Shown here: piece after piece, positions 31,845 through 60,400 of the stretch | Layout of the letters: each line of letters begins with the position of its first letter | Numbering within the stretch: position 1 is the stretch's first letter | NCBI GenBank assembly: GCA_044892525.1 | Contig: CM097885.1 | Location: 14,014,001 to 14,078,000, forward strand | DNA from: Schmidtea polychroa | Taxonomy: Eukaryota | Direction of reading: 5' to 3' | DNA length: 64,000 nt | The notes under the pieces: model-generated | Database searches by the model: none | Seen by the model: the letters and a program-made list of their open reading frames with translations, nothing else | Told to the model about the DNA's origin: nothing | Position numbers and translations under genes: made by a program

Positions 31845-32030
31845 CGTTATCAATCTATTTTTTAAGTCTGTGATAGAATGGCATTAATTATTCTAAATGA
31901 CCAATCAGAAAATATTGAAATTTCTGTTACTGTTTTTAGAAACGCGTTGTCATTCAATCCACGGTGGAGAATTTGATGCAATTCAGAATCACTATAAATA
32001 TTCAATCTTTTCTATTAATTTTATTGTTCA

Positions 32031-39439: not shown

Positions 39440-40270
39440 ATAAAATTACACTAACAAGTTTTTTAAAATCTTGGAAACGGTTGTAAAATTCTTCAAAGAC
39501 GTTCTTAATTTCTTTGATATATTTATTTCATTCGTAGTTAGTTCAAGCAGAAGCCTTTAATTGGTCCAACATGTTTGGAAAATCAGATAAATTTTGATTT
39601 CCAAGCTTTGATACATGCAAATTTAGTTTCACTTTGTAAGCGTTTACAGCACTAATCATATAGAAACATCGGTTTGCCAGGACCTTGTCATTTTAAATTT
39701 AAATAATTTAATTTTGCAGTTATATCGGGAATAAATGCCAAATCTAATAACCAAATATCATCATTTGAATTCTTGTGTTCTTCACCCCTCTCGCCAAGAT
39801 AATGCTTAATTTCATTGAATATATCCATAAATCGCTGTAGACGGTTTTCCGATTTAACCGCCTAACATGAGTATGCATAAGTAGCTAGGATGGTCCAGCA
39901 TCATCAGTTCCTTACACTTGGAACTTAAAAAGGCGACTTTGGAGACTTGTTGCTAGAATCGAATTAGAAATTTTGAAAGTGATATTGATAATTTCGTGCA
40001 TATCTAAAACTCTAGCATACAGCACATGTGGATGGATAATACAATGATATTGTCAAATATCACAGAAACTTTCATAATTTTTACATAGAACGATGACATC
40101 ATTTCGACAATCTTTCATAGCTGATGCTTCACCCGTAGTGATTGAAACTATTTTATATAGGGGATATTGAGCAATCTTATTGAAGTTTTTAAAACTTGTA
40201 AACAGATCTTACTCTCACATTTTTCCTTTTATTGAAATGATTGTTAGTATTTCTTCTTTAGTAGATAAGT
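39440..40270 (-). pseudogene. Highly degraded GTF2IRD2/Buster-like hAT transposase
   Basis: Minus-strand remnants resembling SITTxxASAM, CIIH and WLLDLAFI motifs. Confidence 0.6.
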
Positions 40271-40860
40271 CTTTTAATAAAAATTATATTTTTATTTTAC
40301 ATATTACAATCATGTTTCAAATTGAGATTTCCTTTTACATTTACATTTTGTTTTATACTGTTTGATATATTGCATTTTATTCCAATTTTTACTATTAAAT
40401 TAATTATTGTAATAAAAAGTTAAGGATCGTCCCAAGTGGCACATAATTCTGTTGAGGTTTTAAAAGTAAATTATTAAATTATATTGTTCAGATTAAAAGG
40501 AAAAACCGAAATTGAATGGCGGTCAATCAGAGAAGCAATGGCAAAGAAAGATAAAAACAGAACTATAAAAGCGTACAATCCGACATGAAATGGGAAAATG
40601 CGCAAACCTGAGGAAGTGGAATAAATTGAAAAATTATCGAAATTGAAGCTGGAAAACGGGAGAGGGGTAGATTAGGGGATGGTGAAGAAGACAGTGAGCA
40701 AGAAATTGTTAGAAAATGTTTAGAAAGGGTCGTTAAACAGGCAAATAAAAAACAAAATATTAATTAATTAATTAATTGGCTAATGGGAAACCCGAGCTAA
40801 TAGGAAGCCCGAGCCAATGGAAACCCCGAGCGTGGCAATTTGGAAGGATAAACAAATGGG

Positions 40861-41194
40861 AGTAGTGAGGAATCTATGCACCCCAGCACCCCCACCCTCA
40901 AAAAAAAACAGCGCTATTGACCCATATTTTCCACATTTATATGCTTTTTTACCCCATATTCTTCACTTTTTTTAACTTTTAAACTTTGTCCCCTATTGCC
41001 ATTAACCCTTAATTTCTTCCCTTAAAAGTAAAAAAGTTCGGAATAGATGTATTTATAGATTAGTAATTCCGAGAAAAGGTAACGGGGTGCATAGATTCCT
41101 CACTACTTGGTCTTAAGGATTTAATGTTATAAGGATTTAATGTTATAAGAATATCAGATTACCTAATTCATAATGATCTAGGTCGCCTGATCAC
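40861..41194 (+). repeat. Polinton left TIR
   Basis: Reverse complement of 55379-55710 (2 substitutions and a 2-bp homopolymer indel by eye). Confidence 0.95.
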
Positions 41195-41267
41195 TTTTAG
41201 ATTTAAAAAAAATAAAAATTAATATCAAAACCAAAACATCGTATCCAACCAAAAAATTCTTTTAAAA

Positions 41268-41645
41268 ATGGAAGCTATTTTCAATTGTGAAATTTGTGAA
41301 AAAAATTTTAAAAATAAAACTGCTTTAACATCTCATAAAAAATCAAAAGACCATTTAATAAAAGCTAACACACTAGATGACACTAATTCCAAAATCTGTT
41401 CTAAATGTAAGGATAGATATTTATTTTCAGGTTATAAGAAGCATTTTAAAAATTGTATTGGAGTTCCTAAAAACAGAGAAATATTCGAATGTTCAGCATG
41501 TGGAAAAAAGATGAAGATAAAATCTTTTTACTTAAGACACATAGAAGATTGTGGTCTTGAAGCAAAAGATTCTGATTCAAACTCAATGACTGAAAAAGCT
41601 GAAAAACTAGAGTTTAATTGGGACAACTTCAATCACACGATGTAA
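41268..41645 (+). CDS. Zinc-finger protein, probably the frameshifted N-terminus of pPolB
   Basis: CEIC...H....H, CSKC...H...C and CSAC...H...C fingers; a short bridging open frame at ~41637-41767 leads towards the PolB frame. Confidence 0.7.
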   Translation: MEAIFNCEICEKNFKNKTALTSHKKSKDHLIKANTLDDTNSKICSKCKDRYLFSGYKKHFKNCIGVPKNREIFECSACGKKMKIKSFYLRHIEDCGLEAKDSDSNSMTEKAEKLEFNWDNFNHTM

Positions 41646-41820
41646 TTGTAGAAGTAAAACGAGGACCCAGATCAATCATGCAATATATAAGAGAAAATAA
41701 AAAAAAAATAATATCATCAATGGATGATGCTATAAAAAATTTGGTAGATCAAGATTTAATGTTATAAAAGTTAAATTTACAGGAAATGCAAAATACTGGA
41801 GAGGAGATGATTCAATCGCA

Positions 41821-44800
41821 ATGCCTCTAGATGTAAAAATTGAAACCTCATATAAATATTTATTTTCTACAAAAGCAGGAAATAAACTTGTTAATGATAT
41901 AGCTAAAGAATTGGAAGAAAAACAAGAACAGGTGGAACAAGAACTAGGAGAATCTAATTTAAGATTCCACTCTTTTCAAAATATAGAGATTGAATACTGG
42001 AGAGGCGCACCACCAAATCCTAAATCTTTTATTCACACACCATTCCCCTCCAACCATGTTATAAATGTACAGAATAAAGATAATAAATGTTTTCAATGGT
42101 CAATACTTGCACACTTACATCCTCAAGCAACTAACCCACAGAGAGTTCAAAAATATGAAGAATATGAATCTGAATTAATTTATCCAAAAGATTTTTCCCA
42201 CCCAATGAAAATTGAAGATGTTCCAGCATTTGAAAAATTAAATAATCTTAAAATTAATATTTATCAATTCATTCCAACCAAAATTACAAAAACTAGAAAA
42301 AATAAAAATTATAAACACATTATTCCTATTTACATTTCTAACATGGAAATCTCAGATGAAAAGAGAGAAGTAGATCTTTTAATATTAGAAGAAGGTAAAC
42401 CAGATGAAGACTTTGATGGAGAAGAATATGGTGAAGAGGTTCAAAGCGTTCACCCGAGGAGAGAAGCAGAAGAAGGCATTTCATTAGAACCAGAAGCAGA
42501 AAGCACTGCGTCTGGAGGCACTATGTTAGATAAAAAACTTCATTATATCTTAATAAAGAATTTTCAAAGTTTTATGAAAGGAAACACACTCATTCGTGGA
42601 GGCATATGTTGTAAAAGATGTTTATATCATTCAAGTTCAAAACTTGCTGCTATTAAACATGAGAGACTCTGTTGTAAGAATCAACCTGCTTTAATAAAAA
42701 TGCCACACAAGAAAAATGCTAATATGAGGTTTAAAAACTATTCCAATCTATTAGAAGCATTGGGAGTGGTTTATTGTGATTTTGAAGCTATAAATGTAAA
42801 ACTAAGACGAACAAAAACTAATACTGTAAAACTAACAAAACAATTACTCTCTGCTTATAAAATGTTTTTTAAAAGTAATTATCCAGAACTTGTAGAATCT
42901 AGAGAATATTCATTTAGAGGAACTTCTGACAAAGAGACTCTAGATCATTTTGTTAAAACTTTAAATAATCTAGAACATGAATTATATATAATATTAAAAT
43001 CCAACTTTCCTATGAATTTTTCAGAAGAACAAGAGGAAGAATATAAAAATGCAACACACTGCTGGATGTGTAAACAAGAGTTTGATATTCAGGAGGAGGA
43101 GGATGAGGAGCCAAAGGTTGCAGACCATGATCATTTTAAAAGAGAAAATAATTACAGAGGAGCAGCCCATAAAAAATGTAATCTCAATTGTAAAAAACCA
43201 ACACACATACCATTTATATTTCACAATCTTTTTGGCTATGATATTCACCTATTCATTAAGCATCTGGCCGCAAATGCTAAAAACTCTTTCAAGGTTATTG
43301 GACTTACAAAAGAAAAATATAAAAGCATTCAATATGGATGCTTTAAGTTTTTGGACTCGTTAAATTTCTTAGGGATGTCTTTGGATGGGATTGCTAAAAC
43401 TATGAACCCTGAGGATTTTAAATATACAAAAGAACATGTGTTATTAAAAAACAATATTCCATTAGAGGAATATAATACCTGTCTAGCAAAAGGAATCTAT
43501 CCATATGATTATATAGACTCCTTTGAAAAATATAATGAATTACTCCCACCCCAAGAAGATTTCTTTTCTGTTTTAACACAATCAGGGATTTCTGATCAGG
43601 AATATTCCCGTGCAGTTAAAATGTGGAATCTATTCAACTGTAGAAACCTTGGAGAATATACTGACATGTATCTTTCCTTGGATGTTTATATCTTAGCTGA
43701 TTGCTTCGAGACATTTTCAAAAGCTTTTGAATTAAAACCTTATAATTATATAACCGCTCCCTCTCTAGCTTGGGATATATTATTATATACCATATGGACT
43801 GATGAAGATGTAGCAGTAAGAAATAAAACTATTGAATTATTAGTTGAGCTTGATATGTTTAATGTATATAAACATAATATTAGAGGAGATATTTCTTCAG
43901 TACAAGGGAATAGAGAAATAAATGCTAATAATTTTACAACTCTTTATCCTAAATTTTTCAAAGATCCTGATGCTCTATATGTAGAAATAACAAACCCAGA
44001 AGATAGTAAGGAAATAATGGAAGGTCTTTCTAATCCTTCTGAAATAATGTATATAGATGCAACAGCTTTATATGCGGGAGTAATGACTCAATACCTTCCA
44101 ATTGGCAAGTTCACCTGGAAAGAACCCACTGAGGAATTAATACAAGAAATTCTAAAAACACCAAAAGATTCTCAATTTGGATATGTTGTAGAATGTGATC
44201 TTGAATATCCCAATGAAATAAAATCCAGAACTAGATATTTTCCATTTGCTCCTGTAAGAAGAAAGATCTCTCCTGAAGAACTATCAGATTGGCAGATTGC
44301 TCAGAATAGAACACCATGTATAAAACTTTTATGTGATCAAACAGATAAAACTGATTATCTTTGTCATTATAGACTCCTCCAGTTTTATCTCTCACATGGA
44401 ATGGTTTTAAAAAAAGTACATTCTATAATTAAATTCCGACAAGCTCCTTTTATGAAAAAAATTCATCGAGGGAAATATCTTAAAAAGAAATGCAGCAAAG
44501 AGAGCTGGAAATGCTTTTCTTGATATGATTTATAAACTTTTAAACAATGCAGTCTTTGGAAAGACAATGGAGAATATTGATAAATATACTCGTGTAGAGC
44601 TCTTAACCAATACAACAAAAGATATTAATAAATATAATCGAATAATTGGAAAGCCTACATTTAAAAATGCAGAGATATTCTCTAGTAACCTTATAGCTAT
44701 AGAGATTAAAAACTCTGTAAAAACTTATAATAAACCAATCTTTATAGGTTTTTCAATTTTAGAACTTTCAAAGCTTCAAATGTATGAGACCTACTATGAT

Positions 44801-45661
44801 GTTCTAGTACCCCATTTTGGAGATCGAATATCCATGCATGCTATGGACACTGATAGTATGTTTTTAAAAGGTCATAGTAAAGATTTAAAAAAGGAAATAA
44901 GTGAAAACGAAACCTTAAATAAATTAATAAACAACTCTGGAGAATTATTTACTTTTAAAGATGAAAAACCAAATACTCCAATAAGTGGAGGAGTGTTTAT
45001 TAGACCTAAACAATATTCTCTTGAAATGAAAGACAAACCAATTATGAAAGAGCATACAATAAAATTTATAATAGGGGAGGGAGAAGGATCTGTTGAAATA
45101 GATCACACATTTGAATATCCTTCATTCCCTGAAAACCCGAAAAGCTATAAAGAAAATAAAAGTAAAGGAATTCAAAAATCAGTGTCAAAAACCTTCACAC
45201 ATCAAGAGTATAAAGATTCATTAAATATAAATTATAAAAATAAAATTGCTAAAACGCATCATCTTAAATCAGAGAAACATAATATATATCTTGAAGAGTG
45301 TAACAAGATTGCTATAACAAATTATGATGATAAAAGATTTATACTTTCTGACTTGAAGACAACATTACCTATTGGAAATGATTTAATCCCTATAATAAAA
45401 AATCTTGATAAAATAAATGAAATTTATAACCTAGAGATTACAGACCTTCAACTTGCTAAAGTAGAAATCCAATATCCTGAAATATTAATTCCTAAACCTT
45501 TATATAATCAAGTTCAAAATATAAAACCTATAGAACTTAAATATTTTAATACTGATCCTGAATATATCCAAGGACTAACACCAGAAGACTTTAAATCACA
45601 TAAATTAATGTTAAAAAGCATTACTGCAGAAATAATTATAAATCAATTACGACTGGTCTAA
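41821..45661 (+). CDS. polB: Protein-primed family B DNA polymerase, split by one extra A in the A7 run at 44455-44461
   Basis: NKDNKCFQW, Exo YCDFE / HNLFGYD / FLDS, KGIYPYDY, YIDATALY, KLLNNAVFGKT, DTDS, KQY, DDKR. Removing one A gives ...MKKFIEGNILKR...MIYKLLNN. Confidence 0.93.
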
Positions 45662-45685
45662 GAATTAGAATTTTAACACTATAAA

Positions 45686-46240
45686 ATGATGGAAACTAAA
45701 AATCAAGAAAATAACATTTTTGAAATTATAAAAAATATTACTAATTTAAAGGATAACAGATGTAAAGGAATACAGAGAGTGGTTGCAAAGAATCTTTCTC
45801 ATCAAGATTATATAGATACATTGAATCCAAATCATAAAGATAAAATTGATGAAATACATCAACTTAAAAGTGAAAACCATGATATTCACTTGATAGAATC
45901 TCAAAAAATATCATTATCAAATTATGATGATAAGAGATTCATACTAAGTGATTTAAAGACAACTCTACCTATTGGAAATAATTTAATCCCTATAATAAAA
46001 AATCTAGAAAAGTTGAATAAGTTATATGATACAAAGATTACTGATCTTGATATTTATAATGTTGAAATTATTTATCCCGAGAGAGAAATCGAGAAACCTT
46101 TATATTCTCAAGTTTTTAATCCTATATGTTTAGAACTTAAATATTTTAATACTGATCCTGAATATATAAAAGGTCTAAGTGATAAAGAATTTAAAGATCA
46201 TAAATTAATGATTCATAGGTTGGCTTTCAACCATAACTGA
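45686..46240 (+). CDS. Stand-alone paralogue of the pPolB C-terminal ~160 aa
   Basis: Shares KGIQ, HxLKSE, NYDDKRFILSDLKTTLPIGNxLIPIIKNL and ELKYFNTDPEYI with the upstream polymerase end. Confidence 0.85.
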   Translation: MMETKNQENNIFEIIKNITNLKDNRCKGIQRVVAKNLSHQDYIDTLNPNHKDKIDEIHQLKSENHDIHLIESQKISLSNYDDKRFILSDLKTTLPIGNNLIPIIKNLEKLNKLYDTKITDLDIYNVEIIYPEREIEKPLYSQVFNPICLELKYFNTDPEYIKGLSDKEFKDHKLMIHRLAFNHN

Positions 46241-46334
46241 AACCAACGATATTTAATTTTTTAATAATAAAATGTCGACAATTAATTTAAGCAACTATAG
46301 CAACCTGATCTACTTTTTTAAAAATACACCCATT

Positions 46335-46931
46335 TTATAAGTAAGAATTCTTTAACCATTTTTCTCGAGATGTTTTTTTATTACTTATAACATTAGCCAC
46401 CATACCCTCCCTTTTTAATCTTATAACCTCATTCTTTATATCTTGTATTATTTGATTTGATTTCATTATTTCTTCGTCTGTCAGGATTCCATCTTCCAAA
46501 GCTTTTAATTGAAATAAAAATAATTTAGAGATTCCTAATTCTATTGATAAACAAACTTCTCTATATAAACTTTTCTTTTTAGAAGTATAAGATAATGAAA
46601 CTATTTCAGTTAAGAAACCATCAGCCACAGAAATACTTCCAAGTATTACAGGTGCAAGAGTAACAACTGGTAAAGTTATGGGTAAAATAACTGTTAATAT
46701 TGCAGATGCAAATCCTAAAGAATAACCTATAACTTTTAAAACTGTATTCCCTTTATTCCATCTATTTTTAATTTTTTTATAATGCTTTAATAAATCTTGT
46801 AAATGTAAGGTTTCTGATTTAAATTCTTTTACTCTCATAATTTCAAGTTCTGTGGGAGCCGAGGCCTTGGAAGAATAATATCCTGATGATCTCAATTCTG
46901 GGTAAATTTTTTCTTCTCTTACTTCTTCCAT
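46335..46931 (-). CDS. Polinton membrane protein (PW/GasderminX-like)
   Basis: N-terminal IYPEL...ASAP, central double hydrophobic segment, ALEDGILTDEE motif; the family assignment is from recall. Confidence 0.65.
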   Translation of the reverse strand: MEEVREEKIYPELRSSGYYSSKASAPTELEIMRVKEFKSETLHLQDLLKHYKKIKNRWNKGNTVLKVIGYSLGFASAILTVILPITLPVVTLAPVILGSISVADGFLTEIVSLSYTSKKKSLYREVCLSIELGISKLFLFQLKALEDGILTDEEIMKSNQIIQDIKNEVIRLKREGMVANVISNKKTSREKWLKNSYL

Positions 46932-46939
46932 TTTAATAA

Positions 46940-47587
46940 TTAAAAAAATAAGACTTTATTCTTCTGAGCACCATCTGGTACCAATACTCGGATATCAAAA
47001 GAAACTCTTGTTGAAAGGATGTCTTTATACAATTCTCTCAATGCTTTACGAACTTCATCAACATCAACCTTTTTTTCATAAAATATTAAATCTATATATT
47101 GTACAAGTGAACTAGAAAAATGAATATTCTTACTTTTAACTTTATGTAGTCCATGTGAATGAGTATTAACATACCAATCTTCGTGTGGTAAATCATAACT
47201 AGTCATTATAACATCACCCTTTTCAAGCTTACTATTATAATCACATTTCACAAACCATTTCATTCTTTCATTATCATCATCAAACAAAAAGAAATAAGGA
47301 TCAATAATTTTTACAACCATAAAAACACCCCATTCTTTACTGTTTGTTGTTATTAAACTTGGTTCTATAAAATGTTTATATGTATGGGGTAATAATGTTT
47401 TATTCTGTTCTAATTCAGCAGCTCTTTTTCTAATACTATGTGTGGTGTTAATGTGTGTTCCATGAGACTCTAAATTTGAAATTCTTTTATTAAATGATGT
47501 AATCATCTCATTTATTATATTATATATTGCATTAAATTTTATGGAATATAAGAACTCATTTATTAATAATTTAAAATGAATCTTCAA
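46940..47587 (-). CDS. Hypothetical protein (heptad coil, RKR site); candidate fibre/spike
   Basis: Intact 215-aa ORF overlapping the penton stop (ATGA). Confidence 0.6.
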   Translation of the reverse strand: MKIHFKLLINEFLYSIKFNAIYNIINEMITSFNKRISNLESHGTHINTTHSIRKRAAELEQNKTLLPHTYKHFIEPSLITTNSKEWGVFMVVKIIDPYFFLFDDDNERMKWFVKCDYNSKLEKGDVIMTSYDLPHEDWYVNTHSHGLHKVKSKNIHFSSSLVQYIDLIFYEKKVDVDEVRKALRELYKDILSTRVSFDIRVLVPDGAQKNKVLFF

Positions 47588-48348
47588 ACCTGTTTCAAAT
47601 GTAAATACATTGAAATCTCTTCTCCATTAAAATCAATCAATTCTCCTTCTTGATTAAGAATTTTAAAATTAATATCCATTATATATTTTCTACATAAAGG
47701 TAAATAATTTGGAGGATTCATTCTTTCAACTATTTTATATCCCATAGGAACTGTGTTTGAGGGAAAGGAATATAAAACATTTGTTTGTTTACCATTATTA
47801 TAAGAACCTGTTATACAATCGCAATGAATATTTATTGTGTTTGTATTTATTATTTTTATAATATGTTCTGATGTTATTATTTTATCTTCTTTTATTGTTA
47901 TATCCATAGGTTTAAATCCTAAAACTGTGTGAAAGAAACAATTATCTAAAAAACTAATTTTTATATTCTTCAAAGTCATTACACATTTTGAAGTTGGTAT
48001 ATCCATTTTAATTTTAATACCTTCATTTGTTTTTTTAGAAAGTATATCATTTAAATCTTTTATCTCATATGCCCCAGGTTCTATTGTTATAATTTCTGGT
48101 TTATGCCCATCACGAGTTTGAATAGTAAATTTATTATTATCTTTAGTTATATTAAAAATAGTATTATAAGCACAAAACCATAATAGCCCCAATTCATAAT
48201 TTAAATTTTGATCTAATTTAATTGAATCTTGAAAGTTTATAGTAAACTCTGATTCTTTTGAATTTATAGATAAAGTTCTTGAATATTTATCTGACATTAT
48301 GTTTACCATTTTTTTTAAATTATCTTCCGGAGGGTTGTGAAGCTTCAT
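47584..48348 (-). CDS. Minor capsid protein (penton, single jelly roll)
   Basis: YELGL, IEPGAYEI, INIHCDCI.GSY.NG, YLPL...I.FKILNQEGELIDFNGE...LHLK. Confidence 0.85.
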   Translation of the reverse strand: MKLHNPPEDNLKKMVNIMSDKYSRTLSINSKESEFTINFQDSIKLDQNLNYELGLLWFCAYNTIFNITKDNNKFTIQTRDGHKPEIITIEPGAYEIKDLNDILSKKTNEGIKIKMDIPTSKCVMTLKNIKISFLDNCFFHTVLGFKPMDITIKEDKIITSEHIIKIINTNTINIHCDCITGSYNNGKQTNVLYSFPSNTVPMGYKIVERMNPPNYLPLCRKYIMDINFKILNQEGELIDFNGEEISMYLHLKQV

Positions 48349-48396
48349 TTCTTTAGTAGTAAATTCATATAGTAAAAATCCTTATAGTAAAAATCC

Positions 48397-48861
48397 TTAT
48401 AGTAGAGATTCTAGATCATTATAAATTTCTTGAATTATAGATTCAAAATCCTGCGTATGCCCCTTTCCCTCTCCCTTATTCAATCTATACAAAACATATA
48501 AACTTAAAATACCACATATTTTAGTATTCAAAGGTTGAACTTGTAAAGAGTTAAAAGTATAACCATTTGGGGAATCAATCGGAGAACCCCTCAAGAGATA
48601 ATCTTCAACTTCTTTAGTAGGTTTAATCCCAAAAGAATCAAAGTAGATAGATTTCTTATATATACAAACCCAATGAGATCCTTTTTCATTTGAATTTTGA
48701 TAATTGATTATTATATTCAGGGGACTCTCCAGACTTGATAATTCATCATTCATTAATATTTTAATTTTTAAATTTAAATAATTTGCATAATCTTTTAAAT
48801 CAAAATTTGTTTTTGCATTTATTCCAAATGTTTTTAAAAAATCTAATATTGAAGGAGTCAT
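48397..48861 (-). CDS. Adenain-like cysteine protease
   Basis: GSHWV, YFDSFG, Q....ICG catalytic His-Asp-Gln-Cys pattern. Confidence 0.92.
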   Translation of the reverse strand: MTPSILDFLKTFGINAKTNFDLKDYANYLNLKIKILMNDELSSLESPLNIIINYQNSNEKGSHWVCIYKKSIYFDSFGIKPTKEVEDYLLRGSPIDSPNGYTFNSLQVQPLNTKICGILSLYVLYRLNKGEGKGHTQDFESIIQEIYNDLESLL

Positions 48862-48883
48862 TTTGTATTTTAAAACTTCGTAT

Positions 48884-49777
48884 TTATAACTTCGTATACT
48901 TATTAAATTTATCTTTTGAAATTATTCCTTGTTTTAACAAATCTTTAGAAATCTTTAAAATATCAGAATCTAAATTATTATGTCCTGCTTTCCTTGCAGC
49001 TAATAGTTTTCTTAATTCAATAAAAAGATTGATGGGATTTGGTTTACCACCTTCACTAATTAATCCCTCTCCCTCTGTAACAACATAACCCTTTTCATTT
49101 TTATTTAAATAATTCTTTAAATCTTGAATATATTTTGCTTTAGAACTAGCTCTTATTAATCTTATTAAATTTAAATATTTTTTAATTTCTTCAACATCAT
49201 CTGAAGAATATCCACAAAGTAATCTATAAAAATCATCTGTAAATTCAAAGTCTAAATATTCATTATTATAAACATTTTGTGAATGAATACGTGATTTATT
49301 TTCTGAATTTGAATATAAAGTAAAGTTTTGTTTATTAATTGTTATTATTTGATATCCTTCAGTATTAGTATTAAATGTGGGTCTAATTGAAGGAGGTAAA
49401 TCATCTCTAATTTTAGGATCAACTTTAAGAGCTTTTGTTTTTAAAAACATTTCTTCTTCTTCCACATTAGAAATTCTTCTGCGTTTTCTTTGATTTCTTT
49501 CAGAATGACTTTCAGAATGGTTTTCACTGGATTCTTTTTCTTTATCCTGCCACTCTAGTTCTTTTATTTTTTGTTTTTTATCTTCTAACTCTTTAAATTT
49601 TGCTTGCTCATTGAAATCTTCCAACTCTTTTATAGCTTTAATTGTTGGCCCCTGTTGTTGTGTTATTACCTCATTTAATATTATAGATTCAGCATGTTGA
49701 GTTGTATCTTTTTTATTATATTTATCTTGTTCTGATTGTAATTTTTTTAAAAGTGCTAATCTTTCTTCATATACCAT
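48884..49777 (-). CDS. Polinton protein of unknown function
   Basis: Intact 297-aa ORF with a basic NLS-like RKRRR, GEGL and a C-terminal LLAARKAGHN...LLKQGII helical motif. Confidence 0.7.
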   Translation of the reverse strand: MVYEERLALLKKLQSEQDKYNKKDTTQHAESIILNEVITQQQGPTIKAIKELEDFNEQAKFKELEDKKQKIKELEWQDKEKESSENHSESHSERNQRKRRRISNVEEEEMFLKTKALKVDPKIRDDLPPSIRPTFNTNTEGYQIITINKQNFTLYSNSENKSRIHSQNVYNNEYLDFEFTDDFYRLLCGYSSDDVEEIKKYLNLIRLIRASSKAKYIQDLKNYLNKNEKGYVVTEGEGLISEGGKPNPINLFIELRKLLAARKAGHNNLDSDILKISKDLLKQGIISKDKFNKYTKL

Positions 49778-49799
49778 TTTAATGGTATCAAAAATGGTA

Positions 49800-50378
49800 T
49801 CATAGTTCGAAGGGCTTCAAGTATAATCCTTTACCATTTTTAGTTTTACAAAGGCATCCATTCTTTAAAGATTTACATATTTTTTTTAAATCTTCTTTAT
49901 CTTTTGAAGATAAAGATTCAGATGTAGAAATTTGATTTTTTAAAAAATCATTTAAACCTCTACCTTTATAAGGATCAAGATAGAGACCTTTGCCCTGAGA
50001 CTTTTGCCGACTCCCCTCATATGGATTAAGATAGAGACCCTTTCCAACGGACACTCCCCCTTTAGCTTGCCCTACCTTCTTCATTGAATCGATTTCAGTT
50101 TGTAGTTTTTCTTTTTCTAGGTCTGTCTTTTGAGATTCTTTAGCTTTTTGAACTGTAGTTGCAATTCCTCCAGCTATTCCAGCAGCACCTGATAAACCAG
50201 CAATGATTGCAGGTATTAAAGCAGCTAATGGAAGAATGCCACCTTCTTTAGCTTCGTGGAGCTTCGCTCTAACTTGTTCTTTTACATGTTTTCCAATAAA
50301 ATATTTTTTACCATCAATTACTACTGATTTATTTTTATTTGAATTTATTAATTCTTGCAAAGATTCTTCAGTTGTCAT
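49800..50378 (-). CDS. Core/membrane-active virion protein (adenovirus pX/mu-like)
   Basis: EGGILPLAALIPAIIAGL resembles adenovirus pX GGILPLLIP; three GKGLYLxP repeats; likely start is MTTEE with AAAATG context. Confidence 0.7.
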   Translation of the reverse strand: MTTEESLQELINSNKNKSVVIDGKKYFIGKHVKEQVRAKLHEAKEGGILPLAALIPAIIAGLSGAAGIAGGIATTVQKAKESQKTDLEKEKLQTEIDSMKKVGQAKGGVSVGKGLYLNPYEGSRQKSQGKGLYLDPYKGRGLNDFLKNQISTSESLSSKDKEDLKKICKSLKNGCLCKTKNGKGLYLKPFEL

Positions 50379-50394
50379 TTTATAATAAATAAAA

Positions 50395-51186
50395 ATGGAT
50401 ACTTGGAAACCAATTTTAAATAGACATAAGAGTAAATTCAATAATAAATTATTTCCTGATAATTTTAGATTATTAATTGTTGGTTCTTCTGGATGTGGAA
50501 AGAATGTACTTGTTTTGAGAATGTTACTTGAAGATGATTTTTTAGATTATAATAATTTAATCTTTTATTCTACAACCATAAATCAACCAGAATTACAAAT
50601 TTTGAAATGTGGATTTGAAAATAAATTAACTAAAAAAGCAATAATTGATATTTTTAAAAATCAACATAGGTGTCCTGAAGAAGTTTTTCAACCTTGTGAT
50701 ATGGTTGATTGGTATAAGGAAAAGATTTTAGAATCAGATATTAGTAATAAAAATGATTATATTTGTGAAGAAGGGCAGGAGGCAATTCAAGTTTTATTCT
50801 CTAATAAACCTGAAGATGTTTTACATTGTGATTTACTTCCTAAAGATAAAAAGAATCTAGTTATATTTGATGATGTTGTTAATATGAAAAATCAAGAGAT
50901 TCAAAAGAGTTACTTTACACGAGGTCGACATAATAATTGTAATGTTATTTATATATCTCAAACATATTATGCTTTAGATAAAAATTCAATAAGAAATAAT
51001 TCCAATTGTTTTATATTTTTTAAATTAGATCGCCGTGATAAGAATATGATTTATAATGATTTATTTTCAAATGTTGAACCTGATAAGAATATGTTTGATA
51101 TGTTTGTTGATAATCATTGGAAAGAGAAATATAATTATATTTATTTGGATAGAGAAGAAGCTGAAATATGGAAAAGTTTGTTTTAG
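50395..51186 (+). CDS. A32/FtsK-like DNA packaging ATPase
   Basis: Walker A GSSGCGKN, Walker B LVIFDD, RGRHNN...ISQ, IRNN. Confidence 0.92.
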   Translation: MDTWKPILNRHKSKFNNKLFPDNFRLLIVGSSGCGKNVLVLRMLLEDDFLDYNNLIFYSTTINQPELQILKCGFENKLTKKAIIDIFKNQHRCPEEVFQPCDMVDWYKEKILESDISNKNDYICEEGQEAIQVLFSNKPEDVLHCDLLPKDKKNLVIFDDVVNMKNQEIQKSYFTRGRHNNCNVIYISQTYYALDKNSIRNNSNCFIFFKLDRRDKNMIYNDLFSNVEPDKNMFDMFVDNHWKEKYNYIYLDREEAEIWKSLF

Positions 51187-51197
51187 GGCTTGTCGAC

Positions 51198-52583
51198 TTA
51201 AAAATCTGTTTTCTGTAGTTCATTATTATAAAATCTACCTAATATTTTTTCATTATTTAAATCAAAGATGCTATATGTTATTGGAGTTGTATAATTTATT
51301 TTATTTATAATAAAAATTTCATTTGTCCATTTTGCTGTGAATCCTTTTTCAAATTTATTTTTATATTTAAATATTCTTACTCGGTCACCAATTTTAAACT
51401 TTGGTTTTTCAATAACATCATTTTCAATATTTACCACTTTAATGGTTTCAGGCTTCATGGAAGCATTTAAAGGTGTTAATTTTATAGAACTATGTACATC
51501 ATTATTATATTCATTTACAATCTTTTGTAACAATTCATTGTTCCATTTTTGTTTTCCAATAGCAGTAAAATATTTCCACATTTTATTTTTTAATGTTCTA
51601 TTTAATCTTTCAACTACGACTGCTTTTCCTTCGTTTTCTGTTGAATATAATTTAATATCATTTTCATTTAAAAACTTTGTAAAAACTTTGTTATAAAATT
51701 CTGTTCCTTTATCACACCATAAATATTTTGGGATTCTTTGATTTTCTTCAAATATATTTTCAAATGCTTCTGTAATAGAATATCCTGTTTTATTTTCTAA
51801 ACACCTTGCAAAAGCAAATCTTGTATATAAATCTATTACAGTTAAAATTATTTTATATTTTTCAGGGTCTGATGATTTGGGCATAAAGACTAAATCTGCA
51901 GACCATGTTTGATCTTTTTCATGTACTTGAACTTTTAAATATTTTTTATTTTTTCTAAATTCATGGTGTAATTCCTTTGCATATTTTATTTCTGATTCTG
52001 TTGGGGTTTGTAAACTAGTCTTGGATATATTCTCAAGGGATCTTTCAATGTCTGCTTGTTCGATAATCTTTTTATAAGCAACATCTTTTGCTATTCTAGG
52101 AAGTCTTGCACCCATGGTGATCGGACTGTGTCCTAAGCCTATGAAAATCTTACCTTTCATTGCTAATTTAACTAGAGCTCTTTGAATCTTTTCTTGGGTT
52201 GATGGATTTTGGATACTAATTAAATCATGTATTAAATTCACATCTGCAACATGTCTATCTCTAAGATTTGTTGAATTGTATGCAATGTCATGTTTTAAAG
52301 CTGCTTGATCAATTCTATTTATTGGTTCTTCTCCTTGTTTGGGATTATTATTTTCATCTAATCTAATATCTAATCTTGTTCCTGGTCCGGTGTAGTTGTG
52401 TTTAAATAAATGTCTTTCACCTGGATATTTTTCTGTAGTAAAAGGTTTTAATATTGAAGATGTTGTTTTTGAAGATTGTAGATCGCCTCCTGTATGTTTT
52501 TTAGTTTTTAAATGACTTGCTTTATGATGTCTTGTAACTTGACAATTACAAGTTTCACATCTCCAATATTTATTTAGAGACAT
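51198..52583 (-). CDS. Zinc finger - parvovirus-type PLA2 domain - retroviral-like (rve) integrase fusion
   Basis: CETC...H....H; YTGPG...DQAALKHDIAY...AD; DDE core WSADL / WCDKGTEF / VERLNRTLK; C-terminal FKIGDRVRI...W. Confidence 0.92.
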   Translation of the reverse strand: MSLNKYWRCETCNCQVTRHHKASHLKTKKHTGGDLQSSKTTSSILKPFTTEKYPGERHLFKHNYTGPGTRLDIRLDENNNPKQGEEPINRIDQAALKHDIAYNSTNLRDRHVADVNLIHDLISIQNPSTQEKIQRALVKLAMKGKIFIGLGHSPITMGARLPRIAKDVAYKKIIEQADIERSLENISKTSLQTPTESEIKYAKELHHEFRKNKKYLKVQVHEKDQTWSADLVFMPKSSDPEKYKIILTVIDLYTRFAFARCLENKTGYSITEAFENIFEENQRIPKYLWCDKGTEFYNKVFTKFLNENDIKLYSTENEGKAVVVERLNRTLKNKMWKYFTAIGKQKWNNELLQKIVNEYNNDVHSSIKLTPLNASMKPETIKVVNIENDVIEKPKFKIGDRVRIFKYKNKFEKGFTAKWTNEIFIINKINYTTPITYSIFDLNNEKILGRFYNNELQKTDF

Positions 52584-52612
52584 TTTAAAATGTTAAAATA
52601 TCAGGGATTATA

Positions 52613-53905
52613 TTAAGAATCTCCCCTAAAATTTTCGATTATTGAAATCTTTCCACCATATAATTTCATTTCTATTTTCTTTTCTTCTAATATTAATGTA
52701 TATACTTTAGCTTTAAAATTAGAATCCTTTGTTACATGAAGTGTAACATCAACATTATTTATGGCTAATCGATCATCTTGGTCTGATACATTTATACAAA
52801 ATATAGAATATAAATTTTTGAAATCTTCTAAACTTAATTGCGGTTCAACTTTGAAATCATAACATGTTTCAATATAATTTAGATATGGGAATATGTTTTC
52901 ATTATTTTCAATATTAAATTCCATTCTATTTATTGGATAATAAGAACTATTTAATTGAATTTGTATTGTTTTTAAATTATCATCTCCAATCTTTTGAATA
53001 AATAGATTGTTATTTTTTTGGAAAGATGAATCTGTTTCTTTGAATCCAATCAAGATATATCTTGGTCGGTATGCTAAATTTGCTACCTTTATAGAATATG
53101 TTGAACCCTCTGTCATACTAAATTCACTACAGATTCTATTTAAATAATTTACATTTATAGACTTGTTGGAATTTAATCTTTCAAGGAGTTTAATCTCAGA
53201 ATGTGGGTTTAATGTCCATTCAGGTATATGTAATTCAAGTGTTGATAATTTTAATTTAGCTTTTGTATCTACAGCTCCATAGAACAATCTTTTATCACCT
53301 TCTACTCTATTACAGATGAATTCTATAAAAACATTATGAAGTATACGATTATAGTTTTGAAGGAATCCAAACAAGTGTTTTAATTCAAAATAACCTTCAA
53401 AATTTTTAGATTTATAAAGTTCAGCTCTTTTATGGTAACCATGGTTTACATCTAAACCATCTTTATCTAAATCCCCTTTATTAACATCAGGAATCCAACC
53501 TGTTAATTCACCATATTCGTTTTTATAATCACAACCAGTCAAAATAAAATTTAACATTGTAGAATATACTCCCGGATGCAAAACAGTTTCAATTTCTGAT
53601 GATCCTAGTTTTAATCTCATGTTGGAGAATAAATTTGGAAAGAAATTATTTTCTAGGGTTATATCTTTGTTTGCTTCAATTTCTAATTCGATTTTATAAT
53701 ATAATTTGGCATTACAAATATCTATTGGGTTTGATGTTTGAAGAGATTGAAAAACTATATCACCCCTACGATTTAAGTTTGCAATAGATCCTGAAGTTGG
53801 AGAGATTTTTAAAATATCATTTTTTTTAATTTCATGAGTAAATTCTTTATTATAATCAAGATTTAATTTATTTTTTTCTTGAATTTTAAGATTTATATTA
53901 TTCAT
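52613..53905 (-). CDS. Major capsid protein (double jelly roll)
   Basis: 430 aa; NNFFPNLFS, LKHLFGF, PRYILIGF, LNSSYYP, IFCINVS motifs and gene context. Confidence 0.85.
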   Translation of the reverse strand: MNNINLKIQEKNKLNLDYNKEFTHEIKKNDILKISPTSGSIANLNRRGDIVFQSLQTSNPIDICNAKLYYKIELEIEANKDITLENNFFPNLFSNMRLKLGSSEIETVLHPGVYSTMLNFILTGCDYKNEYGELTGWIPDVNKGDLDKDGLDVNHGYHKRAELYKSKNFEGYFELKHLFGFLQNYNRILHNVFIEFICNRVEGDKRLFYGAVDTKAKLKLSTLELHIPEWTLNPHSEIKLLERLNSNKSINVNYLNRICSEFSMTEGSTYSIKVANLAYRPRYILIGFKETDSSFQKNNNLFIQKIGDDNLKTIQIQLNSSYYPINRMEFNIENNENIFPYLNYIETCYDFKVEPQLSLEDFKNLYSIFCINVSDQDDRLAINNVDVTLHVTKDSNFKAKVYTLILEEKKIEMKLYGGKISIIENFRGDS

Positions 53906-53961
53906 TTTTATATATTAAAATTTACACACACAAAATAGGATTAATTAAATATATTATGTAA

Positions 53962-54043
53962 GCCATTATAGCGGAGTGGGAATAGGCTTCAATTTTATCA
54001 CCGGGAGTACCGGGTTCAATTTTCGATTTTGGTCAATTTTTTT
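53962..54043 (+). ncRNA. tRNA-like Pol III unit 1
   Basis: A-box TAGCGGAGTGG (53969), partial B-box GGTTCAATT (54013), T7 terminator. Confidence 0.5.
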
Positions 54044-54205
54044 CGATATTTTTTTTTCAACGGAATCTGATTTAGCGTACTGATTTTAGTATATATTTAA
54101 ATTTTCAGATGGATCTGAGTGGTAGTTGTCGAGAAAATGAATAATTAATTATTAATTTCATCAATAAATAGTCACACATTAACAACTTATTTTGTATTGA
54201 GTATA

Positions 54206-54286
54206 GCTCTAATAGCTTAGTGGTAATAGCACTCGACTGCATTGCCAATACCAATGGGTTCAAATCCCATTTCGGTCATTTTTTTT
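54206..54286 (+). ncRNA. tRNA-like Pol III unit 2
   Basis: A-box TAGCTTAGTGG (54213), B-box GGTTCAAATCC (54257) in a perfect T-arm ATGGG-TTCAAAT-CCCAT, T8 terminator. Confidence 0.65.
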
Positions 54287-54443
54287 CAAATTTTTTTTTA
54301 ACGAAATATTGATCAGCATACTCGATTTAGTACTTGTACAAATTTTTAAGGAGATTGGTCAACGGCAACTCTTGGAAATTTAAGATCAAAAACGTTTTAA
54401 CTACCAAAAATTAATATATCCAATAAAAAAAATATTTATAAAA

Positions 54444-54740
54444 ATGGATGAGTTAAAAGAAAGAATGAGAAATGAATTGAATGAAGTTAAACATAAGAGA
54501 ATGAAAAGAAGAGAAGAAGAACCATTAGAATACATCAAAGAGTTGATGGTAGATAATGAAAAGTCTCGACATTTTTATATGAAGGCTGTAGATGTTGCTG
54601 ATATAAGATTGAAGAAAATGAAACAATTACAGGAAAGAGTTAAAGAACTTGAATCGATTATTTATAGTCTAAAAAATGACAAAAATTCAAACCTTGATGG
54701 CGCAGTGGGAATAGACTGGCACAGTGGTTCAAATGGATAG
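54444..54740 (+). CDS. Small coiled-coil protein
   Basis: 98-aa charged helical ORF with TATAAAAATG context. Confidence 0.6.
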   Translation: MDELKERMRNELNEVKHKRMKRREEEPLEYIKELMVDNEKSRHFYMKAVDVADIRLKKMKQLQERVKELESIIYSLKNDKNSNLDGAVGIDWHSGSNG

Positions 54741-54773
54741 TGGTTCAAATCACATCTGAGGTTAGTTTTTTTT
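54691..54773 (+). ncRNA. tRNA-like Pol III unit 3
   Basis: A-box TGGCGCAGTGG (54698), B-box GGTTCAAATC (54742), terminal stem AACCTTG/TGAGGTT, T8 terminator. Confidence 0.55.
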
Positions 54774-55378
54774 CAACATAAAATAATATTAAAAATTTGA
54801 AAATAATATTGAAAATAGTGTGGGTATCTTATATTTATAAAGTACTTGTATATTTTATTTTATTTTATTTTATTTATTTTATTTATTTTATTTATTTTAT
54901 TTATTTTATTTATTATTTTATTTTTTAAACATAAATATGAAAAAAAAAATATTGAAACGGGTGATGGCCCCGAACCGGTAATTATCGCCACCTTTCTTTC
55001 GAACACCCCCGGATCGATTCCGGTAATGTGCACATTTTTTTCTCAGTTGTTTTCGGACCTCTTTCGGATTCGCTTTCGAATTCATTTGTACTTTCGAGCA
55101 GCACACTTAAAACGCCGATGAAATCGTATTCGAGCGAGAAGCGAATAATAAGGTGTGCTGCTATTATCGAATTGATTCTGATGTATGAGTCTGGCCAGCT
55201 TGTATATTGGAAGAGATTTGATAAACGAAAGAGGTTGAATAAAAAAAAATGATCCGGATCAAAAAAAAACTGTTGAGAGGACAGTGAAAAAAAAAAAAAA
55301 AAAAAAAACCACTGTCCTCTCAGAGCAGTTTTACTATTTCATAAAATTTTTTATTTTTAAAACTTTCAAAACCTTAAG

Positions 55379-55710
55379 GTGATCAGGCGACCTAGATCAT
55401 TATGAATTAGGTAATCTGATATTCTTATAACATTAAATCCTTATAACATTAAATCCTTAAGACCAAGTAGTGAGGAATCTATGCACCCCGTTACCTTTTC
55501 TCGGAATTACTAATCTATAAATACAACTATTCCGAACTTTTTTACTTTTAAGGGAAGAAATTAAGGGTTAATGGCAATAGGGGACAAAGTTTAAAAGTTA
55601 AAAAAAGTGAAGAATATGGGGTTAAAAAGCATATAAATGTGGAAAATATGGGTCAATAGCGCTGTTTTTTTGAGGGTGGGGGTGCTGGGGTGCATAGATT
55701 CCTCACTACT
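55379..55710 (-). repeat. Polinton right TIR
   Basis: Inverted copy of 40861-41194. Confidence 0.95.
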
Positions 55711-56821
55711 AATGGGGAATTCAGAAAACAATTATCAAAACAGCCGGATAAACGAGGGTAAAAAAAGAAGGGGAATTAGGAAGAGGGTCAACAGAAATAG
55801 ATAATTAGGGAATGATAACTAAGGAAGTCAAAACCAATTAGGTCAAAAATAGGGCAATTACAACGATTATGGGAGTATATAAGGAAACTCCATATTCACA
55901 TAATCGGCGATAGCCTTAGGTAAGAAAGAAGAAAACGACATTAGGAGTTAGAAGAATAGAATAAAAGAAGAAAAAGAATTATAGGAAAACTGAAGAGTTA
56001 GACAAGGAGTGTCAAAAGAGATTGGATCAGACAACGGAACTAAATCAAAAGGTGAAACTTAATTTTTTAATCGTACAAGGTTGAGACCTTCCAGAGAGGA
56101 GTCCGATCTGAAATTGTGTGAGATTGCGGTTAACCAACAGTGTAAATAATTTTTGAGAGTTGTAAATTTTTATAAAACAAATATACGTTGGGAGTTTGTG
56201 TTTATTGATTTTGGAACACGTGGAGTCAGAGTAACCAACGGTTCATTTTGATATCATAAAACCCAACAATTCAATTCTACTGATAAATTAATCAGTAGAT
56301 AATTCTTTTCACATTTTGATTTCGATATATAAATGAATTTTATCACTGAATATTTTATATTTATATTTAATTTTCAAAATTTTATGACAGGATAAAAGAA
56401 TTGATTACCTCAAGAATATGATGATGAGATGGAGGGTGGCCCTTGCTAGTAAAATCAAATATAATTCAACTTCATGATAATCGCAGTTGAGATTATCAAA
56501 ATTGTCCCCTAATCAGTAGGATTGATAATATTTATGATTATAATTTTATATGTTATGAGAGAAATTATATTAATGAATGCAAATATGTAAAATTATGTAA
56601 GAAAGAAAATTTTCAAAAATCGCTGGAAAGTTGGAATCGAAACACTTCGGTGTCAACAACCTACAGGTTTGAAGCCTGCACCCCGGACCGCCGAGGCTCA
56701 TCCCAGCAATTATACATTTCTAATTTTCTTATAAATAGATTATATACACTTTACATTTTATTTATAATTATTATTGCAGCAAATTATTTATCGTAAATTA
56801 ATTAAATTCCAGTACAAAGTT

Positions 56822-57499: not shown

Positions 57500-60400
57500 T
57501 GTTGAAGTTGGTAAGGAAACCAAAAAGAATGTATATATAAAAGAAAGGCATAACAAATATTAGTAAAATCAATAAAAGTGCAAATTATTTAAAACTTACT
57601 AAAAATCAAAAATAAATATTGAATGGGAGTATCGTATATTTTTGAACGCCAAATTGATAGACGAGTTCAGAAATTATAATGAAAATTTAATGAGGGATTC
57701 ACAGAGAAAGTTAATGTGAAAAAACAAATTAATTAAAATTAATTAATCTGTAATGGGAAGCCCGAGCCAATGGGAAGCCCGAGCCAATGGGAAGCCCGAG
57801 CCAATGGGAAGCCCGAGCCATTTGGAATCCAGAGCTCGTGGGAAACCCGGAGCGCAGTGAAATCCGATCGATAAGATATGAGAGCGAACATTCCGAATGC
57901 CAATTTAGAACAAATAAATTAAAATAATTTGGAAACCTTCAAATTTTTACTTAGGATTCATGGGAGATAATTAATTGCAATTCTGTAGATAATTGCCCTC
58001 TCAGAAACAATATAAAAAGATAGCTCAGAAACAGACAAGCTGCCAGTTGGTCGAAGAAACAAATTGAAGCTCAGTGAATCAGGCGATCAGAGATCAGAGA
58101 ACGAAATATCGTAATTGGAAAAAAAAGTTTAATCCTCGAACTAGAAAAGAGGATTGCCCCTCTGGTTATCTACCCTAACGAGTAATATTTATATTGAGCG
58201 AAAGGTGCAAATATAGTAACAAATTGTAATTTGATTGAAATTGAATAAATTTATTCTGTGCTGGGTTTCGATTTTTTTATTTAAATAAGAACACGAAAAG
58301 TCAGAGGGAACCTACATGAAAAATAAAATCCAACATTTTGGTGAGGGTGACGTGATGCAAGTCGGCTGTGAATATTGCGGGAAAAAATAAAAAGAGAAAA
58401 GTAAAATCGATTGAGAGTTGAATATTATTGACGTGAAGAAGGTCGGAGAGGGAAAACTAAAATTAATTGAAAGTTGAAAATTATTGTCGAGGTACAAAGT
58501 TGGAGATAAAGTTGTTAAAAAGAAATTAAATTGAAAAAGTAGAAAAGAAATAAATTGTTGTGGTTCAAATAAAAGAGAAGTAAAAAAATAAAAATTTAAA
58601 TAGTACTAATTGAATAAAAATATTTTTGTCAAATATTTGGAATATTGAAATAAGGGAAAGTGAAAATAAATTGTTGTAGTTAAAAGATAAGAAAGTGAAT
58701 AAATTGTGCATTTGAAATAAAAGCGTAAATTTACTGAGATTTAGAAGCTATTGAAATAAAGTTGTGAGAAATTACGAGAGAATTTATAAAGACAATTATT
58801 GAAGATCAATTCAAAATTCAAACAAAAGGTAAAGTTAAAAATTGTAAAGTTTTAAAATTATACAATCTGAGAAGTAAAAACAATTGGAAAGTATGGTGTC
58901 GAGTAACTCAAATGTCAAAGAGCAAAATTCAGTGTCTACTACTCCAGCGAACAATGGAAACGACTATGCCAGTTGTTAAAAATTACCCATCGATCAGTAC
59001 GGAGGAGATCCAGTCGAATATTTTGATTTCATGATAGATTATTACATGTATGTTACAGCCTATGGATGTAGCCAAGCAACTATGGTTCAACGGCTATCAT
59101 TAGATCTAAAAAGAGCAGCACAAGAGGTCTGGAAACAGATTGATAAACGACCCATAGCAAATGATTGGACAAGATTAAAATATGCGCTTGCAGCCAAGTT
59201 GATCGGAGAAGATATAAAGAGAATGATGCGTCAGAAGGTTTACAGTCCAGTGCAAAAGCCAGATGAATCGATAAGTAAGTTTGCATGTCATTTAACTACT
59301 CTTGCAGAGAAAGCATTTGAACTGAAACCAGATCACGAAGAAGTGGCAAAGCAAGTTAAAGAATTATTGCAGGATCAATTTTTGACAGGAGTCAAAAAAG
59401 AAATAAAAAGGGCTTTATGTTTTGATAACTTTACAAGTTTTTATGACTTAATTAAAAAGGCCATGAGAATCGAAATGAACCTCAAAACGACTCAGTCAAA
59501 AGCAGAATCCTTTGCGACTATCAGTGAGCCAAGAGATAGATCAATAGCCCTAGTCAGTGATAACTTACTCTAAAGGCCAACCAGCCCATTTCCCAAGTTC
59601 AGAGTGAAATTTGAACCAAGAAAGCCAACAGCCCGTCCAAATGAGGAAAGACAAAGACCACTTCGATGTAGTCATTGCTAGAAAATGGTCTATAATGTAA
59701 ATCAATACTGGTTTAAAATAATATTCGAATGAGCCCTAGCCAAGTTCAGTGTGATTATTGTCGAAGAAAAGGATATAACAATAATCAATGTTGGTTCAAA
59801 AATAACGAGCAGCGTAGTCCAAAAGGAATGTTTCCAGAATGGGTGAAATGTAATGGAGAGAAAAGTGTTAACAGAACGAATATCCGTAACCAAAGAACCA
59901 ATGATAATATACAATGCAATAATTGTGGAAGGAAAGGTCATGTCTCTCGAAATTGTTTTGCAAGATTCAGATCTCAGTCAACATCACTATCACCACAGAG
60001 AGATAGACTAATTTACAAGGCCAAATTCATTGTAACTTCAATGTAGTCATTGGCAAAAATTGTCCATTAGGTAGTGTGTCGGTTCTAGGAATTTTCTGTG
60101 TGTAGGCGAGTTGCAAATTTGCCGCCGCAAAAATAAAAAATGTTGTAATTTTTAAATTGAAAAAAATAGAAAAACACTGAATATCTGAACTTAATACATA
60201 TATTTGTATTTTAATACGAAAAATTAAACAAAATCCAGTTTATAAAAAATAACAAATAACAAAACAAATAATAATTAAAAGTGAATTTTTCTCGCTTTTA
60301 ATTCTCCAAAATCCTTAACCAAATCTTCTATGTCTAATTGATCAGCAATTTCTTTTTCTATGGAAATCGTGGCTAGACCAACTAAACGATCTTTACACAA

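Follow-up and report, generated by a model that had tools for sequence, protein, structure and literature searches.

Do animal Polintons form virions? A young-looking, multi-copy family of such elements with unshared lesions would be a candidate in which to ask, and the locus described here may hold a member of one. It lies in a stretch of 64,000 nucleotides from Schmidtea polychroa (assembly GCA_044892525.1, contig CM097885.1, positions 14,014,001 to 14,078,000 of the forward strand), called the window below, in whose coordinates all positions are given. The original prediction, made from the letters alone, had placed at 40861-55710 a near-intact endogenous adintovirus-like Polinton with a full virion module, recently inserted and drawn from a possibly active virus family. 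The explanation considered probable here is that these 14,850 bp of AT-rich DNA (~30% GC) are a full-length Polinton/Maverick (adintovirus) provirus, likely from a young multi-copy family whose other members differ from it at three breaks in the polymerase gene, PolB.

Ends and age of the insertion

The element is flanked by an exact 6-bp target-site duplication (TSD), AATGGG, at 40855-40860 (+) and 55711-55716 (+), a match with a chance of about 6e-4 given the local composition. Both proposed boundaries, 40861 and 55710, are borne out along with it, and the termini read AGTAGT...ACTACT. The left terminal inverted repeat (TIR; 40861-41194, +) is 334 bp long, starts with (AGT)2 and contains a 16-bp tandem repeat at 41114-41149, and the right TIR (55379-55710, -) is 332 bp long. 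Their cores differ by two substitutions (40950, 41047) and a two-base difference in an A run, giving 99.4% identity over aligned bases, in agreement with the predicted figure of about 99%, and weaker likeness continues for about 35 bp further. An inverted copy of the terminal 24 bp lies about 220 bp inside each TIR (41084-41107, -, on the left; 55466-55489 on the right), and the first 247 bases of each TIR (40861-41107, 55466-55710) are thus bounded by 24-bp inverted termini. Each such segment could self-close and resembles either a miniature element nested inside a larger one or a panhandle origin that closes on itself. A motif shared by the TIR and the sequence before the penton gene, TATAAGGATTT, was not above chance (7 found against 7.4 expected).

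The TIR divergence of 0.6% has a 95% interval of 0.07-2.2%, whereas host repeats in the window are 89-96% alike, so the insertion is younger than those repeats. The claim of a recent insertion is therefore likely to be right in relative terms, on the sequence evidence of the exact TSD, the TIR divergence and the older host repeats. No full empty-site paralogue of the flanks was found within the 64-kb window, and the contig records listed for the four sequencing runs compared below include none that spans the left junction or an unoccupied site.

Immediately to the left of the insertion lies a 17-bp tandem repeat of the AATGGGAAACCCGAGC type (40779-40831), also found at 6651-6735, 33149-33231 and 57735-57870. 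The TSD sequence AATGGG is the start of its unit, a possible target preference.

Hallmark genes

The 14 open reading frames (ORFs) or ORF pieces of the element were scanned against Pfam. Mavericks are recognised by TIRs with an AG/AGT end together with a 6-bp TSD (PMC8097293), and both are present. The element also encodes a protein-primed family B polymerase (PF03175 E 4e-7), broken in this copy, and an rve integrase with its DDE triad. Two further genes complete the set: a double jelly-roll major capsid protein (MCP) of 430 aa (52613-53905, -; PF21738 E 1e-26; 40 homologues) and an A32/FtsK packaging ATPase of 263 aa (50395-51186, +; PF04665 E 3e-9). By its ends, TSD, PolB, integrase, MCP and ATPase the element is a member of the Maverick/Polinton group. 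The ATPase frame is open, as predicted, but its Walker A motif is non-canonical in this copy and canonical in four of four relatives. As assembled, the element also falls outside the 'intact' class, in which all core ORFs are unbroken (PMC8097293), on account of three frame changes in PolB. For the MCP, IMG/VR yielded no relative and the PDB no match by sequence; the protein collection contained no letter-for-letter copy of any of 10 window proteins; and no TBP gene turned up in the Pfam scan of the element ORFs.

The polymerase gene and its breaks

PolB is read in pieces. The first (41268-41645, +, 125 aa) is a C2H2 zinc-finger N-terminus (PF12171 E 6e-7) cut off by the first frame change; it matches residues 7-83 of two full-length PolBs, P0161 (1341 aa) and P0162 (1441 aa), that is, their N-terminus. 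The main piece (41728-44523, +) holds a likely terminal-protein and vOTU region, the exonuclease and polymerase motif A, and motifs B (KLLNNAVFGK) and C (DTDS) lie in the C-terminal piece (44456-45661, +; PF03175 E 4e-7). Between them the pieces retain motifs of both exonuclease and polymerase. A 907-aa PolB piece has no PF03175 match of its own, and PolB gave no phage match. In the vOTU candidate a Cys motif, DNKCFQW, and a His motif, HYILIK, stand at the expected place and are conserved in the alignment, and the exonuclease holds an inserted zinc domain named HNH/endonuclease-VII-like from its motifs; the PolB domain names in general follow motifs and PMC11161782.

The frame changes lie near 41.64, 41.73 and 44.45 kb, and P0161 and P0162 align to the window in three frames at ~50% identity. 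The prediction that only the PolB region is frameshifted was right as to the place, but the gene changes frame three times and loses its N-terminal zinc-finger piece as well. From the assembled sequence of this copy no complete polymerase could be made. That the pieces are joined by splicing or programmed frameshifting was considered and rejected, because PolB is a single ORF in relatives and the length at the breaks is different in sister copies.

A different explanation is that the breaks are assembly errors and the copy is in fact intact. Two of the three breaks coincide with A runs, of 6 and 7 bases, most other listed length differences between the window and contigs of other runs are also in A/T runs (40900, 54049, 54425, 55021, 55261), and the window base at 54565 is matched by no covering depth in any of the four runs. 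Set against these are a first break outside any base run, the lack of frame errors in all other 11 ORFs, the expectation of a few true indels at ~0.3-0.5% divergence, and the Walker A change, which is a substitution. An intact copy behind assembly errors is a serious possibility at somewhat less than an even chance; between real decay and assembly error as the source of the breaks, the evidence is about even.

Directly behind PolB stands a duplicate of its C-terminal region as an ORF of its own (45686-46240, +, 184 aa), with 60% identity over 165 aa. A dS of 0.81 with dN/dS of 0.34 marks an old duplication under selection. No tandem second copy of the PolB C-terminus was seen in 11 related loci reaching the PolB end, two of which end too near to judge. 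That the duplicate serves replication, as a cofactor or an inhibitor, is no more than conjecture.

Other members of the family

Other copies were judged from assembled contigs of sequencing runs; four runs (X1, X2, X5 and X11) were compared over 39861-55330, and substitutions and indels relative to the window were taken from the matches listed only. Part of 44001-53900 is held by 20 of the 24 listed runs, six of which hold at least half of its words, and these runs carry at least two organism labels; none of them is recorded as RNA. Near-identical sequence occurs under two organism labels, with shares of 0.93 and 0.83.

The original prediction would fall if all copies shared the inactivating lesions, and this was not what the contigs of other runs held. 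In X2 a one-base length difference is present at all three PolB breaks, in all of the depth. In X1 length variants account for 33, 49 and 49% of summed depth, shares which are no count of broken copies, since a short contig that stops close to a base run is unable to reveal the gap. At the third break the length variant also occurs in X5 (63% of depth) and X11 (all). The PolB lesions are therefore not family-wide.

The 8 longest X2 pieces listed carry 31 substitutions relative to the window over 5601 bases (0.55%), and in the nearest MCP cluster 7 of 9 members are full-length, open and 95.6-97.7% identical. Single X1 contigs of the element reach a depth of ~10,000 against 165 for a flank contig, which gives no copy number but fits a large family. 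The family is likely to be multi-copy and young. Its members have the capsid module in common while the polymerase is variable: X5 and X11 carry fixed differences in the PolB region that are absent from X2, and X11 pieces show ~9% differences in PolB (51/554) against 0-2% in three virion-gene pieces (0/311, 13/674, 4/308). Summed depth over the left TIR is low (2249 in X5 and 0.5 in X11, against ~350000 and 295 over the MCP), a hint only, as summed depth cannot rank parts. The predicted picture of a recent insertion from a possibly active lineage suits the family better than it suits this copy.

The breaks might instead place the copy in a polymerase-defective subfamily spread in trans by intact helpers, and the clustering of all breaks in PolB, the intact TIRs and virion genes, and the at least half of X1 summed depth that lacks a length variant at the breaks would be expected of one. 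Since the X1 shares are limited by short contigs near base runs, that depth does not count defective copies, while in X2 a long contig spanning the sites has no depth with the window's form, and substitutions private to the window make up 0.1-1.4% of X1 depth. Such a subfamily is accordingly regarded as very unlikely, and a young family with unshared lesions remains the preferred reading.

A predicted phospholipase-integrase fusion

The integrase is part of a 461-aa protein (51198-52583, -) which combines a zinc finger, a parvovirus-type phospholipase A2 domain (PLA2; residues 58-139) and the rve integrase with its D230, D291 and E325. Pfam supports both assignments (PF00665 E 8e-12 and PF08398 E 8e-9), the PLA2 match passing the curated cut-off, and the three integrase residues are invariant in 20 of 20 aligned sequences. 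Both domains occur together in 109 of 120 homologues (the best 120 of 778), so the fusion is a trait of the lineage and no accident.

Conserved Gly motifs lie on either side of the PLA2. Among the best 120 homologues, 77 have a GP[GL][TS] motif, on which the linker counts are based: the PLA2 HDxxY motif is kept in 76 of the 77, GG, GA or GS stands before the domain in 63, and K..GxG or K..GG stands behind it in 69, against 7 of 1540 control windows. Motifs of this kind are also seen in the putative core protein and in the tail of the MCP. Those beside the PLA2 resemble adenovirus-protease sites, and those bounding the domain may be sites of the element's own protease.

PLA2 domains in Polintons are known (PMC3671162, PMC5803895, 10.64898/2026.06.19.733378). 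A description of the fusion with the integrase was not found in the literature covered, which included few subscription papers; the available part of PMC11131425 does not mention it, and the sequence supplements of PMC8502044 may show it. The fusion is widespread in databases and apparently undescribed. A complete relative in IMG/VR (L039:1-15597), whose contig ends at its TIRs (123 bp), has PLA2 and integrase in adjacent ORFs.

Other virion genes

The remaining capsid-type genes are open as predicted; Pfam names the MCP, the A32 ATPase and the rve integrase, while the names of penton, protease and core protein rest on relatives and motifs. A 254-aa ORF (47584-48348, -) next to the protease and MCP genes, with 27-49% identity to 7 relatives, is a likely penton, or minor capsid protein (for the concept see PMC4028283). 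A 154-aa ORF (48397-48861, -) has H63, D75, Q109 and C116 invariant in four of four sequences and is likely a maturation cysteine protease of the adenain/Ulp1 type, in which these residues follow the same order. Both ORFs recur beside MCP and ATPase in related loci, and both identities are likely. A 192-aa ORF (49800-50378, -) with GG and repeated GxG motifs is likely a pX-like core protein; it is conserved in 8 of 37 metagenome loci and has a faint match to Adeno_PX (E 0.04). None of these three proteins had a significant Pfam or PDB sequence match.

Between the putative protease and core genes lies a conserved Polinton ORF of 297 aa (48884-49777, -) in a PZ/Adintoc-like position, with matches in L001, L004, L038 and other loci. 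A 198-aa predicted membrane protein (46335-46931, -) has a hydrophobic hairpin between coiled coils (KD19 2.36) and belongs to a conserved Polinton family with 177 relatives, including genes in L023 and L039. Its Atlas score of 0.84 for DUF4231, presumably a SLATT-clan family, makes a SLATT-like protein a lead only. GasderminX was considered for the same ORF and found unsupported (best PDB profile E 0.11, SmhB E 0.37, no common Pfam family). Two ORFs belong to no family: one of 188 aa (46940-47506, -), standing where relatives have a fibre-like gene and without a match in Pfam or in 48 loci, and a basic, coiled-coil-like one of 98 aa (54444-54740, +).

The virion genes could also be a recent inheritance that goes unused in the host, the family moving only within cells as a self-synthesising transposon. 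No particles have been seen for any animal Maverick (PMC8097293, 10.64898/2026.06.19.733378), and the very high summed depth fits spread within a genome. A particle stage would fit the MCP variants, open and 95.6-97.7% identical, the retained PLA2, whose catalytic motif and Gly linkers are conserved, and the presence of near-identical sequence in runs with two different organism labels, and purifying selection on fish Maverick capsid genes has been reported (PMC8097293). Purely intracellular movement is rather unlikely.

Pol III-type units in the right arm

Between the MCP start and the right TIR stand three tRNA-like units on the same strand, at 53958-54056 (+), 54206-54286 (+) and 54688-54772 (+), the last overlapping the end of the 98-aa ORF. 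Each consists of an A box, a B box and a T run, the combination found in VA-RNA-like Pol III genes. A pattern of these parts, composed after the units had been seen, has 3 matches in the window, all within the element; among 300 Markov nulls of the element, whose mean is 0.003 matches, none reaches that number. The second unit, with a broken acceptor stem, scores 32.4 bits against Rfam RF00005 (gathering score 29) without an ARAGORN call, and none of the units has an Rfam VA match. They are likely small-RNA genes, non-functional as tRNAs.

The same units might be TFIIIC-binding boundary elements or decayed tRNA/SINE pieces and no functional RNA genes, an explanation given nearly an even chance. 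The boxes and T runs have been preserved but the stems have not (folding z 0.5, -1.8 and -0.4), and the block of units is missing from some copies. It is less easily reconciled with this explanation that all three units have the terminator at equal distance and in common a GGT(C/T)A end before it, and that they lie on one strand with neither tail, flanking duplication nor other copy in the window. In the literature covered, nothing was found on degenerate Pol III units in animal Mavericks.

Beyond the small-RNA candidates, a non-coding stretch at 55030-55340 (+) folds strongly. Its part at 55030-55240 has a z score of -4.9 (-1.7 on the other strand) and 55240-55340 one of -8.4, including a perfect hairpin around a 22-A run at 55266-55332, just inside the right TIR; the length of the run varies among copies.

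Flanking host sequence

The flanks contain RING/zf-TRAF and MATH pieces, Arf pieces and Ty3-like retroelement remains. An animal host would be consistent with the TRAF-type, Arf and retroelement pieces. Those of TRAF-like genes (RING, zf-TRAF, MATH) lie at 26964-28575 (+) with an internal 300-bp duplication (25976, 27665). Arf-family GTPase fragments are found at 5504-5926 (+), ~32000-32400 (+) and 62425-62817 (-; PF00025 E 3e-46), adjoin long AAT microsatellites and are part of a segmental repeat with tRNA-Sec. tRNA-Sec is usually a single-copy gene. Copies lie here at 35025-35111 (-), 56621-56707 (-) and 60975-61061 (+), with a degenerate one at 8567-8647 (-), in a repeated host segment of 1-4 kb which also carries the Arf-like gene piece; three of the four score above the Rfam gathering score and two are called by ARAGORN (anticodon TCA).

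A model of the life cycle

The steps proposed for this family are inferred from the known biology of Polintons. The rve integrase would insert the linear genome, the protein-primed PolB would copy it from the TIR ends, and the A32 ATPase would pump it into a capsid built of MCP and penton. Maturation would follow, with the cysteine protease cleaving at the Gly motifs found in the core protein, in the MCP tail and to either side of the PLA2. By means of the fusion one polyprotein would be loaded into the particle, and cleavage would free two enzymes from it, a phospholipase with which to escape through the membrane and an integrase that could insert the genome immediately upon entry. The integrase inside the particle which the fusion predicts would be a simple answer to the problem of integration before gene expression. 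The tRNA-like units would likely recruit TFIIIC and Pol III to give small RNAs of ~75-80 nt rather than working tRNAs, suggesting a parallel to adenovirus VA RNAs in a group thought to be ancestral to adenoviruses. This copy, which in its assembled form could not replicate itself, would need the proteins of sister copies, and with its ends intact it could be moved in trans.

A number of observations speak against this picture. No virions are known for any Maverick-Polinton (10.64898/2026.06.19.733378). PolB makes up 35% of the coding length but holds all three frame changes (p ~0.04). Elsewhere in the element, too, this copy deviates from the family, as the Walker A change and substitutions apparently private to the window, for example at 44624, 50599, 53402 and 54565, show. 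Of 11 more distant viral loci, 8 have PLA2 as a gene by itself, 2 as an adjacent ORF and 1 not at all, so the fusion is no requirement of the life cycle. The tRNA-like units, besides resting in part on a pattern made after the fact, are missing from 48 distant, mostly partial loci (with one loose match inside an L039 ORF), and some family members skip them (joints 53916-54407 and 54740-55125).

The fullest form of the model is a particle-forming family in an animal host, with a packaged PLA2-integrase polyprotein split by the protease, VA-RNA-like Pol III RNAs, the PolB duplicate as a replication cofactor, and strains swapping a TIR/polymerase module under a common capsid module. Taken as a whole it is speculative and improbable. 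Near-intact Mavericks are common, with 134 intact ones in vertebrates (PMC8097293), so one further copy is unsurprising.

Comparison with known systems

Adintoviruses, or animal Maverick-Polintons of the class Polintoviricetes, are close to the element in content. Their PolB has an N-terminal OTU domain and their hosts are animals (Starrett et al. 2021, PMC8502044), and like the present element they are TIR-bounded, of 15 kb, with PolB, rve integrase, FtsK/A32 ATPase and hexon; their adenain-like protease and penton have likely counterparts here, as does their pX-like core protein, and a PLA2 domain is present in both (PMC8502044). In adintoviruses the PLA2 and pX-like domains are joined as PLA2X, typical of Alpha virion modules, whereas here the integrase is the fusion partner of the PLA2, the likely pX-like protein is encoded separately and PolB is apparently Beta-like; the element lacks the PLA2X of an Alpha adintovirus. 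Beta adintoviruses have a PolB less than 30% identical to the PF03175 archetype and carry GasderminX and Cupiennin genes (PMC8502044); GasderminX was not shown in the element when the family of the 198-aa protein was compared with gasdermins. Judged from these genes, the weak PF03175 match points to Beta and the PLA2 to an Alpha-type virion module.

For the tRNA-like units, the nearest counterparts are adenovirus VA RNA, the TMERs of MHV68 and the tRNA genes of PLVs and MELD viruses (PMC12220804; PMC8502044, Fig. 6 legend), which likewise place a type-2 internal promoter and a T-run terminator in a virus genome. The putative units here differ in being tRNA-sized, with a poor acceptor stem, and in having neither an ARAGORN tRNA call nor an Rfam VA match.

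Nematode Polintons with pPolB1 or pPolB2 (Jeong et al. 2023, PMC10748475) also have an HNH-like domain inside pPolB and a polymerase that varies under common virion genes, on a larger scale than here. Unlike them, the present element has no fusogen, and the swap is between close variants and not between classes of 16% identity.

The gene order differs from that of intact vertebrate Mavericks, and a PLA2 fusion, a PolB duplicate and tRNA-like units go unmentioned in the available part of their description (PMC8097293). In other respects the agreement is close, as (AGT)2 ends and a perfect 6-bp TSD are common to both, the size of 14.85 kb falls within their 12.7-24.6 kb, the 334-bp TIR compares with a mean of 402, and the intact vertebrate elements coexist with broken copies, as is the case here.

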